From a virus (Duplodnaviria > Heunggongvirae > Uroviricota > Caudoviricetes), in the IMG/VR virus record IMGVR_UViG_2778261688_000006: DNA of 8,820 nucleotides; one strand, given 5' to 3'. Below, in pieces: positions 2,861-8,820 of the stretch; within the stretch, counting starts at the first letter, position 1; every line of letters begins with the position of its first letter. The notes beneath the pieces were generated by a model that saw only the letters and a program-made list of their open reading frames with translations, searched no databases and was not told the DNA's origin. The position numbers and the translations under genes are program-made.

Positions 2861-2998
2861 TCATACTCCTGCTCCTGTCAGGGTTTTGGCGTAACTCTTC
2901 AGTATTCGGTAATCGGTCAAAACAGAACCGGGGAAACGATATAAGCGCAGGCGCACCCAGCGGCGGCGAAGACGTTCTGCCATATAAGACTCAAACAT
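2861..2998 (-). CDS. ylcG: Small basic ORF between rusA and Q (YlcG-like position), about 45 aa
   Basis: Frame [45 protein letters not shown]; its ATG overlaps the rusA stop (TGATG), suggesting translational coupling. An alternative start is ATG 2983 (40 aa). Too short for the ORF track; identity is from position and size only. Confidence 0.4.
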   Translation of the reverse strand: MFESYMAERLRRRWVRLRLYRFPGSVLTDYRILKSYAKTLTGAGV

Positions 2999-3360
2999 CA
3001 TTCATCTCCCAGTTCAGTGATGGTCAGTTCCAGCCTCCCACCTTTGGTAACAGGCATCTTCACAACGCGGTAATCAACGACCTGAGCATCATCCAGCCAG
3101 AAACCTGCTTTGGTGAGTGCGTCAAAAGCGGCCTTTTGCAGATTATCCAGGTCACGGCGACGGCGATCCGGCATGTGGCACTCAATGCGGATTTTCACAG
3201 GCATAGCCAGGCCGATATCCAGCATTGCGTTTTTAATGATTCGGGCGACGTTATCGCGGTATGCCTGCCCCTCTGCGCTGATGTGCGTGCGCCCGCGATT
3301 ATGGCGGTAATAGCGATTATTGCTCGGAGGCCAGGGTAATGTGATGCTGTAGGTATTCAC
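2998..3360 (-). CDS. rusA: Holliday-junction resolvase RusA, 120 aa
   Basis: [26 protein letters not shown]...[10 protein letters not shown]...[11 protein letters not shown] is recognisably RusA. The first codon is GTG (reverse complement of 3358-3360), preceded by a GAGGGGGG Shine-Dalgarno. Confidence 0.93.
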
Positions 3361-4731: not shown

Positions 4732-4957
4732 TAACCGCCCTATTCTCTCGCTGAATCGCAAACCGAAATCACGAGTAGAAAGCGCACTAAATCCGATAGA
4801 CCTTACAGTGCTGGCTGAATACCACAAACAGATTGAAAGCAACCTGCAACGTATTGAGCGCAAGAATCAGCGCACATGGTACAGCAAGCCTGGCGAACGC
4901 GGCATAACATGCAGTGGACGCCAGAAAATTAAGGGAAAATCGATTCCTCTTACCTAG
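4732..4957 (+). pseudogene. N: Antiterminator N, 3' fragment (about codons 34-107); no start codon, arginine-rich boxB-binding N-terminus missing
   Basis: Plus frame 4733..4957 translates NRPILSLNRKPKSRVESALNPIDLTVLAEYHKQIESNLQRIERKNQRTWYSKPGERGITCSGRQKIKGKSIPLT* (lambda N C-terminal part). Upstream in-frame sequence back to the TGA at 4598 has no ATG/GTG/TTG and no N-like residues. Confidence 0.85.
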
Positions 4958-6458: not shown

Positions 6459-6483
6459 GCGCGGCGTTACCGCATACCAATTA

Positions 6484-6504
6484 CGCTTCACTCGAGGCGT
6501 TTTT
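6484..6504 (+). terminator. Candidate hairpin plus U-tract upstream of cIII (terminator or cIII mRNA regulatory structure)
   Basis: CGCTTC-ACTC-GAGGCG (one G-U pair) followed by TTTTTCGTT, about 25 nt before the cIII Shine-Dalgarno (AAGGAG). Confidence 0.35.
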
Positions 6505-6530: not shown

Positions 6531-6695
6531 ATGCAATATGCCATTGCAGGGTGGCCTGTTGCTGGCTGCCCTTCCGAATCTTTACTTGAACGAATCACCC
6601 GTAAATTACGTGACGGATGGAAACGCCTTATCGACATACTTAATCAGCCAGGAGTCCCAAAAAATGGATCAAACAATTATGGCTATCCAGACTAA
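6531..6695 (+). CDS. cIII: CIII, FtsH/HflB protease inhibitor stabilising CII, 54 aa
   Basis: Hand translation from ATG 6531: [54 protein letters not shown]; AAGGAG Shine-Dalgarno upstream. Too short for the ORF track. Confidence 0.9.
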   Translation: MQYAIAGWPVAGCPSESLLERITRKLRDGWKRLIDILNQPGVPKNGSNNYGYPD

Positions 6696-6807
6696 ATTCA
6701 CTATCGCCACTTTTATTGGCGATGAAAAGATGTTTCGTGAGGCCGTCGACGCTTATAAAAAATGGATATTAATACTGAAACTGAGATCAAGCAAAAGCAT
6801 TCACTAA
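6664..6807 (+). CDS. kil: Kil, host cell-division (FtsZ) inhibitor, 47 aa
   Basis: C-terminal 47 codons of ORF-track 6538..6807: [47 protein letters not shown]. The upstream part of that ORF is an out-of-frame overlap with cIII and is not counted. Confidence 0.88.
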
Positions 6808-6882
6808 CCCCCTTTCCTGTTTTCCTAATCAGCTTGGCATTTCGCGGGCGATATTTTCACAGCCATTTTCAGGAGTTCAGCC

Positions 6883-7179
6883 ATGAACGCTTATTACATT
6901 CAGGATCGTCTTGAGGCTCAGAGCTGGGCGCGTCACTACCAGCAGATCGCCCGTGAAGAGAAAGAGGCAGAACTGGCAGACGACATGGAAAAAGGCCTGC
7001 CCCAGCACCTGTTTGAATCGCTATGCATCGATCATTTGCAACGCCACGGGGCCAGCAAAAAAGCCATTACCCGTGCGTTTGATGACGATGTTGAGTTTCA
7101 GGAGCGCATGGCAGAACACATCCGGTACATGGTTGAAACCATTGCTCACCACCAGGTTGATATTGATTCAGAGGTATAA
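6883..7179 (+). CDS. gam: Gam (short GamS form), RecBCD nuclease inhibitor, 98 aa; the long-form N-terminal extension is frameshifted
   Basis: ORF track 6883..7179, [60 protein letters not shown].... The GamL start ATG at 6762 ([24 protein letters not shown]...) is in a different frame and hits a stop after 49 codons. Confidence 0.93.
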
Positions 7180-7184
7180 AACGG

Positions 7185-7970
7185 ATGAGTACAGCACTCG
7201 CAACGCTGGCTGGGAAGCTGGCTGAACGTGTCGGCATGGATTCTGTCGACCCACAGGAACTGATCACCACTCTTCGCCAGACGGCATTTAAAGGTGATGC
7301 CAGCGATGCGCAGTTCATCGCATTACTGATCGTTGCCAACCAGTACGGCCTTAATCCGTGGACGAAAGAAATTTACGCCTTTCCTGATAAGCAGAATGGC
7401 ATCGTTCCGGTGGTGGGCGTTGATGGCTGGTCCCGCATCATCAATGAAAACCAGCAGTTTGATGGCATGGACTTTGAGCAGGACAATGAATCCTGTACAT
7501 GCCGGATTTACCGCAAGGACCGTAATCATCCGATCTGCGTTACCGAGTGGATGGATGAATGCCGCCGCGAACCATTCAAAACCCGCGAAGGCAGAGAAAT
7601 TACGGGGCCGTGGCAGTCGCATCCCAAACGGATGTTACGGCATAAAGCCATGATTCAGTGTGCCCGTCTGGCCTTCGGATTTGCGGGTATCTATGACAAG
7701 GATGAAGCCGAGCGCATTGTCGAAAATACCGCATACACTGCAGAACGTCAGCCGGAACGCGACATCACTCCGGTTAACGATGAAACCATGCAGGAGATTA
7801 ACACTCTGCTGATTGCCCTGGACAAAACATGGGATGACGACTTATTGCCGCTCTGTTCCCAGATATTTCGCCGCGACATTCGCGCATCGTCAGAACTGAC
7901 ACAGGCCGAAGCAGTGAAAGCTCTTGGATTCCTGAAACAGAAAGCCTCTGAACAGAAGGTGGCTGCATGA
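7185..7970 (+). CDS. bet: Bet (Red beta) single-strand annealing protein, 261 aa
   Basis: ORF track 7185..7970, [66 protein letters not shown]...; its stop overlaps the exo start (ATGA). Confidence 0.97.
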
Positions 7971-8647
7971 CACCGGACATTATCCTGCAGCGTACCGGGA
8001 TCGACGTGAGAGCTGTCGAACAGGGGGATGATGCGTGGCACAAATTACGGCTCGGCGTCATCACCGCTTCAGAAGTTCACAATGTGATAGCAAAACCCCG
8101 CTCCGGAAAGAAATGGCCTGACATGAAAATGTCCTACTTCCACACCCTGCTTGCCGAGGTTTGCACCGGTGTGGCTCCGGAAGTTAACGCTAAGGCGCTG
8201 GCCTGGGGAAAACAGTACGAGAACGACGCCAGAGCCCTCTTTGAGTTCACTTCCGGCGTGAATGTTACTGAATCCCCGATCATCTATCGCGACGAAAGTA
8301 TGCGCACCGCCTGCTCTCCCGATGGTTTATGCAGTGACGGCAACGGCCTTGAACTGAAATGCCCGTTTACCTCCCGGGATTTCATGAAATTCCGGCTCGG
8401 TGGTTTCGAGGCCATAAAGTCGGCTTACATGGCCCAGGTGCAGTACAGCATGTGGGTGACGCGAAAAGATGCCTGGTACTTTGCCAACTATGACCCACGA
8501 ATGAAGCGTGAAGGCCTGCATTATGTCGTGGTTGAGCGGGATGAAAATTACATGGCGAGTTTTGACGAGATGGTGCAGGAGTTCATCGAAAAAATGGACG
8601 AGGCACTGGCTGAAATTGGTTTTGTATTTGGGGAGCAATGGCGATGA
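7967..8647 (+). CDS. exo: Lambda exonuclease (Red alpha), 5'-3' dsDNA exonuclease, 226 aa
   Basis: ORF track 7967..8647, [65 protein letters not shown].... Confidence 0.97.
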
Positions 8648-8820
8648 AGCATCCTCACGATAATATCCGGGTAGGTGCGATCACTTTCGTCTACTCCGTT
8701 ACAAAGCGAGGCTGGGTATTTCCCGGCCTTTCTGTTATCCAAAATCCACTGAAAGCCCAGCGGCTGGCTGAGGAGATAAATAATAAACGAGGGGCTGTAC
8801 CGGAACCAGATTGGCGATAA
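8638..8820 (+). CDS. Lambda orf60a-like protein, 60 aa
   Basis: ORF track 8638..8820, [50 protein letters not shown]...; overlaps the exo 3' end, as orf60a does in lambda. Confidence 0.75.

Follow-up and report, generated by a model that had tools for sequence, protein, structure and literature searches.

In the stretch of DNA analysed here (8820 nt, IMG/VR record IMGVR_UViG_2778261688_000006, Caudoviricetes; hereafter the window), it is very probable that gam is an ordinary and intact gene, that the CATTTT just upstream of it is the common, majority and apparently ancestral state, and that the corresponding TATTT of phage lambda is a derived state that created the long isoform of Gam, GamL. 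The change would have consisted of a 1-nt deletion and a C-to-T substitution in the lambda lineage, turning CATTTT into TATTT; the deletion would have brought an ATG that lies inside kil into the gam frame, giving rise to the 138-aa reading frame of GamL. The gam gene of the window would then be translated as the short isoform, GamS, alone, from its own ribosome-binding site. The features on which this reading depends are the following (AJ1 is the Escherichia coli genome NZ_OZ547217, whose prophage is 100% identical to the window across the region).

6664–6807, + strand: kil, 47 aa, lambda-type Kil (phrog_3924, 'Kil protein', E=8.8e-36 over its full length; AJ1 annotation)
6762–6914, + strand: 50-aa ORF from the ATG that is the GamL start in lambda, overlapping the 3' end of kil and the first 32 nt of gamS
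6808–6882, + strand: kil–gam intergenic leader, 75 nt, which travels with gam and not with kil
6864–6869, + strand: polymorphic site, CATTTT in the window and TATTT in lambda (aligned to NC_001416 and AJ1)
6871–6875, + strand: AGGAG, Shine–Dalgarno sequence of gamS, with a 7-nt spacer to the ATG
6883–7179, + strand: gam (GamS, 98 aa, RecBCD inhibitor; Pfam, PHROG and PDB matches, PGAP)
7185–7970, + strand: bet (261 aa), the next Red-operon gene 3' of gam (ORF list, AJ1 annotation)
7967–8647, + strand: exo (226 aa; ORF list, AJ1 annotation)

The two isoforms of Gam

Early purifications of Gam reportedly gave subunits of about 16.5 kDa. Two forms of the lambda protein are recognized, presumably arising from two start sites (PMC11610958). 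GamS is the form that has been crystallized and visualized on RecBCD, where it acts as a DNA mimic that sterically blocks the DNA-binding site, and quinolones are potentiated both by GamS and by cloned GamL (PMC5218532).

The GamS gene of the window is intact

The product of the window gene matches the Gam family PF06064 over positions 1–98 of 98 (E=3.4e-65; 216.8 bits, against a cut-off of 25), phrog_259 likewise over positions 1–98 of 98 (E=1.2e-60), and the GamS chains 5MBV_A and 2UUZ_A of the PDB over residues 1–98 (E about 2.5e-61 to 1e-61); a search of NCBIfam, which has no Gam model, gave no match. Both the Pfam and the PHROG profile have 98 positions, the length of GamS, and lambda GamL matches them solely over its residues 41–138. 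The genes follow each other in the order kil-gam-bet-exo among the window ORFs, as annotated at the identical AJ1 locus, and PGAP there records a 297-nt gene for a Gam family protein (WP_000995439.1), an allele already well annotated. PGAP also calls a 98-aa product in an O157:H7 genome that has the lambda allele.

With its 98-aa core, Shine–Dalgarno sequence and ATG all undamaged, the window gam has none of the marks of a pseudogene or of a gene in decay, and the first-pass annotation, made from the sequence by itself, was right to describe GamS as intact from 6883. Its mention of scattered L-to-I and S-to-A changes in Gam corresponds to L22I and S61A, the two differences between the window protein and lambda GamS (98% identity). 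Among the loci compared (the IMG/VR matches listed, with lambda and the window), I22 and A61 in fact prevail (104 of 109 loci, with the L and S of lambda in three); of the 111 in which the gene is covered, 109 have the complete 98-aa ORF, and the window protein is the commonest variant (46/109). Because it is 98% identical to lambda GamS, for which the complex with RecBCD has been solved (PMC5218532), the window product probably inhibits RecBCD. Two damaged genes in IMG/VR illustrate what true decay of gam looks like, rare as they are: locus L084 is interrupted by a nonsense codon at GamS residue 41, and in L048 the 3' half has been swapped for unrelated sequence.

A single base separates the window from the GamL frame

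Pairwise alignment with NC_001416 sets GCCATTTTCAGG in the window against GCTATTTCAGG in lambda. The window has exactly one surplus T, its run being TTTT at 6866–6869 and that of lambda TTT, and there are substitutions nearby at 6864 (T in lambda, C in the window) and 6834–6835 (CC in lambda, TT in the window). The first-pass annotation had recognized the two halves of a GamL leader in two frames meeting at a T-run that exceeds lambda's by one base, and the alignment agrees with this; the extra T does fall in the run, at the coordinates just given and not at 6867–6870 as first stated. Equal runs in the two phages, named beforehand as the outcome that would count against that observation, are not what alignment with the lambda gam 5' region gives; neither that outcome nor the other one named, TTT on resequencing, provided for a change on the lambda side. 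The suggestion that the DNA comes from a relative of lambda and not from lambda itself is borne out. The difference from lambda is real, neither an artefact nor a private mutation, because AJ1 carries the identical sequence and an exact 52-mer centred on the T-run is found in 1984 complete E. coli records.

What does the extra base do to the reading frame? Residues 1–36 of the ORF from 6762 are those of the lambda GamL leader save for P25L and Y35H, and the two diverge after ...FHSHF. A gene able to encode GamL has an in-frame ATG 120 nt 5' of the GamS ATG, with no stop between them; in the window, 121 nt separate the ATG at 6762 from that at 6883, placing the former one base off the gamS register. 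The gam frame, which is also that of kil, is closed upstream by a TAA at 6826–6828 (−57 from the GamS ATG), and there is no ATG, GTG or TTG in the gam frame of the window sequence between this TAA and the ATG at 6883. The upstream ATG being out of frame, and with the TAA followed by no other start, GamL therefore cannot be made from the window by standard decoding.

Both alleles are widespread

The exact lambda-allele 51-mer is found in 761 complete E. coli records, against the 1984 that have the window 52-mer. A pattern scan of IMG/VR in which the polymorphic stretch was left free gave at least 119 loci; among the 119 matches listed, 84 have CATTTT and 35 TATTT, and no third allele (CATTT or TATTTT) occurs among them, so in these loci the C/T substitution and the indel are perfectly linked. 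Phages deposited in GenBank divide evenly, 86 having the window allele and 86 the lambda allele, the latter count including lambda itself and lambda-named records. Viable Stx phages are among the carriers of the window allele.

Near-identical lambda gam was also found in assemblies under other labels, among them Shewanella, Pseudomonas, Kitasatospora, Neobacillus, Oceanobacillus and Leeuwenhoekiella (examples are the contigs L132, L134, L135, L139 and L140). Of the contigs concerned, three are about 48.4–48.5 kb long, and the names of several include a coverage value near 1; contamination with lambda used as a control or spike-in is the likeliest explanation of lambda gam in such assemblies.

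The leader belongs to gam, and the GamL start codon to kil

The gene upstream of gam is of two types. Besides the lambda-type kil, a 96-aa PHROG 294 protein, also labelled Kil, precedes gam in about 43% of the sampled loci (for example L108, 3547–3837, − strand). The boundary of the mosaic lies at the kil stop codon (window 6805–6810), with the same leader and gam after either type of kil. Since homology resumes at the stop of the upstream gene, the 75-nt leader is part of the gam module, outside which the GamL start codon lies. The ATG at 6762, being within kil, is accordingly missing from the roughly 43% of related loci (among the IMG/VR matches listed) that bear the other type.

This arrangement was surveyed for coding potential in 121 loci (the 119 IMG/VR matches listed, lambda and the window). 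An in-frame ATG at −120 is present in 32 of them, every one with TATTT and a lambda-type kil, and TATTT is nearly confined to the lambda-type kil. Among the same matches, CATTTT accompanies the lambda-type kil in 32 loci and the phrog_294 type in about 51, and in none of these CATTTT loci, with either kil type, does the gam frame offer a start codon upstream of GamS.

The leader itself varies in sequence and in length: 120 of the sampled loci yielded 37 haplotypes of 79 to 82 nt, with 1-nt polymorphism at two homopolymer runs. One is the T-run; the other hotspot is the C-run after the kil stop (window 6808–6814), which is C4, C5 or C6 among relatives. Such single-base length variation is the behaviour of non-coding DNA. 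Counts by codon position and of synonymous and non-synonymous changes (8/11 for the leader read in the GamL frame, 32/48 for the GamS body) did not separate leader from body and favour neither reading.

Direction of the change

To judge the direction of the change, outgroup Gam genes were drawn from a phage collection and from contigs representing one genome per species, at 70–76% protein identity or more distant. Nine have a clear start: those of phages CobraSix (Enterobacter) and SEN34 (Salmonella), two from Citrobacter, and one each from Klebsiella grimontii, Raoultella, Pseudescherichia, Escherichia sp. ESNIH1 and an Enterobacteriaceae genome; an 83%-identical E. coli/Shigella gam type (a pair of loci) was left out, its start being unclear. 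A GGAG-type Shine–Dalgarno sequence precedes the GamS-equivalent methionine (M[NA]AY..QDRIE) in eight of the nine, and the Citrobacter gene at L149 has AGGAA. None of the nine has an upstream in-frame ATG, and their upstream in-frame stops are scattered from −6 to −117.

CobraSix and SEN34, whose gam regions are about 76–83% identical to that of the window, contain TTCAGGAGTTCAGCCATGAACGC exactly as in the window. From GGCATT to CAGGAG the CobraSix sequence aligns with the window without a gap, whereas lambda requires a gap of 1 nt, and at the substituted base CobraSix has CCA like the window, against CTA in lambda. Among the remaining outgroups the length varies at this point, CACA and CAGG being 15 to 17 nt apart. 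As the spacing of CobraSix is that of the window and other outgroups exceed it by a further base, lambda has the shortest spacing of all.

CATTTT is likely to be the ancestral state, because CobraSix shares both its length and its C, no outgroup has a GamL-like ATG, and CATTTT is found with both types of upstream gene. The TATTT of lambda would accordingly be a derived 1-nt deletion, a direction suggested by one cleanly aligning outgroup, CobraSix, and parsimony on the direction of an indel is weakened by recombination among lambdoid phages. It is on this point that we depart from the first-pass annotation, in which an existing GamL had been split by a frameshift: TTTT predominates both in complete E. 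coli records and among the IMG/VR matches listed, it occurs with two kil gene types, and its length and its C recur in CobraSix, in a set of outgroups with no GamL-like ATG.

Other explanations of the extra base

The reading closest to that earlier view is that the prophage descends from a GamL-encoding ancestor and, in the course of its decay as a defective element, lost the long isoform through a +1 insertion in the T-run. The prophage is indeed defective (it has lost 3.7 kb of the immunity/replication region by comparison with AJ1), which makes decay generally plausible, and the GamL leader in its lambda frame can still be recognized in the window. Nevertheless, we consider this improbable, as the same allele is present in the 1984 complete E. 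coli records and in the 86 deposited phages that include viable Stx phages, is the majority among the IMG/VR matches listed, and shares its length and base with the outgroup CobraSix, while a GamL-type start is absent from the outgroups. The probability that the extra T is an error of sequencing or assembly is negligible. The difference does sit in a homopolymer run, where indel errors typically arise, but the run is merely four T, the flanking C/T varies strictly together with the indel in all 119 IMG/VR matches listed, and AJ1 is 100% identical; error is excluded in practice because thousands of independent assemblies agree on the identical sequence.

Might the ORF from 6762 nevertheless be expressed, either fused to gam or in its own right? 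Programmed +1 ribosomal frameshifting at CAU UUU C (6864–6870) could yield a GamL-like product, since a +1 shift is what the frames need (6883 − 6762 = 121) and tRNA-Phe could slip from UUU onto the UUC that begins a base further on. However, the next codon in the zero frame is CAG, neither a stop nor rare; no Shine–Dalgarno-like stimulator lies upstream, the AGGAG being downstream of the site; local structure is not significant (z=0.02); in the outgroups both frames are interrupted by stops, the positions of which vary; and the loci with the other kil type (about 43% of the IMG/VR matches listed) have no ATG corresponding to 6762. Frameshifting therefore strikes us as exceedingly improbable, and four T are far too few for transcriptional slippage. 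Scarcely more credible is an independent small gene at 6762–6914, overprinted on the 3' end of kil and the 5' end of gamS. Fifty codons are open from the ATG, but profile searches against Pfam and PHROG gave zero matches for the ORF, no Shine–Dalgarno-like motif precedes the ATG in the window sequence, the start is missing where the other kil type is present, and the C-terminal part shifts frame in the 28–50% of relatives that have TATTT, as well as with indels in the C-run. Being without a Shine–Dalgarno sequence, a family match or conservation, the ORF from 6762 most likely gives rise to no separate protein and is not a gene. The reading we prefer thus remains that of an intact GamS gene with the commoner, apparently older leader.

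A hairpin in the leader

A pattern scan of the leader revealed a structure that resembles a terminator:

6832–6859, + strand: terminator-like hairpin, GCTTG, loop GCATTTCG, CGGGC, then GATATTTTCA

The hairpin pattern matches at 6832–6849 and is followed by the U-tract GATATTTTCA. All five pairs, counting G-U, can form in 108 of 120 sampled related loci, and one rare type is compensatory (U-A). Variation between C and T in the 5' arm, which in the GamL frame gives Pro or Leu, turns G-C pairs of the hairpin into G-U. Folding of the 101-nt region revealed no stability beyond that of shuffled sequence for the window (the z of 0.02 given above); for lambda the signal was weak (z=−1.57). Neither NC_001416 nor J02459 has a terminator annotated at the site, and a search of the literature on tL2 found nothing relevant. 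The lambda tL2 terminator cluster is located between bet and ral, and this hairpin and a second terminator-like hairpin with a U-tract, at 6483–6500 (+ strand) of the window between ea10 and cIII, may be members of it. A putative role of the leader hairpin would offer a non-coding reason for conservation of the leader.

The prophage around gam

The element is a DLP12-like defective lambdoid prophage, in which the genes of the pL operon (ral, ea10, cIII, kil, gam, bet, exo) follow one another along the + strand of the window. By comparison with AJ1 it is without 3706 bp from mid-ninB to mid-N (L001, which is AJ1, 6233–9940; junction at window 4732–4733, with a 2-nt overlap). In AJ1 these carry ren, P, cII, cro, a cI-like repressor and the 5' end of N, and by lambda gene order we take them to include pL and nutL also. 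Because of this loss, the Red operon of the window is most likely without its normal promoter, and expression of gam-bet-exo there seems doubtful with either allele.

The exact ninB/N junction of the window is in no complete E. coli genome. Three E. coli genomes have independent deletions joining ninB to a truncated N at other breakpoints (L125, 4477–5080, NZ_CP062853; H112; H113), and loss of the immunity region therefore looks recurrent in the DLP12-like prophage family, as these cases suggest. At the other end, the last 21 bases of the window (8800–8820, ccggaaccagattggcgataa) depart from AJ1, all E. coli matches ending at or before 8799, and they give the DUF1317/orf60a homologue an altered C-terminus (...GAVPEPDWR*); this divergence points to a mosaic or deletion junction truncated by the end of the window. 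The left part (1061–2203, + strand; 2392–2790 and 2998–3360, both − strand) is DLP12-like, with an NmpC-type prophage porin, annotated ompC, adjoining quuD (the Q antiterminator), ylcG and rusA. In AJ1 the lysis genes essD, rrrD and rzpD are just beyond the limit of the window.

What the dimorphism may mean

For the window itself little changes: the odd one out is reference lambda. A frameshift relative to lambda at this site gives no ground for calling either pseudogenization or assembly error, and the 138-aa 'full-length' Gam of lambda, cloned as GamL in several studies, is the product of a minority allele. Since GamL is lacking from most natural relatives and from every distant Gam examined, GamS is the conserved biological unit. 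This does not make the GamL-bearing allele meaningless, because two isoforms have been reported from lambda and GamL shows activity when cloned (PMC5218532), and the loss of GamL could in principle matter.

It is conceivable, if on present evidence rather unlikely, that GamL is a young, lineage-specific invention, overprinting the 3' end of kil and the hairpin, and that the two alleles form a stable natural dimorphism with a possible function. If so, some quarter to half of lambdoid phages would make GamL and GamS and the rest GamS only, and the dimorphism need not be neutral drift: it could reflect potency, stability or the interaction with host defences that Gam blocks or that sense it.

Comparison with known Gam systems

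The name GamL is also used in phage phi80, for a protein that has only the name and the RecBCD target in common with the long isoform of lambda and is of an unrelated sequence type (PMC12315714). The 93-aa Gam of CobraSix carries the note 'putative host nuclease inhibitor GamL', a confusion with the phi80 name. With lambda GamL (138 aa, NP_040618, NC_001416) the comparison is closer, as the DNA for its 40-residue N-terminal extension is present in the window at 96–97% identity; the T-run of the window, one base longer, leaves the ATG at 6762 outside the gam frame.

Closest of all are the Stx-converting and lambdoid phages and prophages exemplified by Escherichia phage Chlobot, PA28 and Stx1 phage AU5Stx1, in which the kil-gam DNA is 99–100% identical to that of the window. 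Their gam group (WP_000995439.1) has the TTTT allele and is annotated, as in the window, with a product of 98 aa, and the window is a member of it. The protein itself is colinear from end to end with lambda GamS (98 aa; PDB 2UUZ, 2UV1 and 5MBV; PF06064), with which it shares the Shine–Dalgarno sequence, the start codon and the kil-gam-bet-exo order, and from which it differs only at residues 22 and 61.
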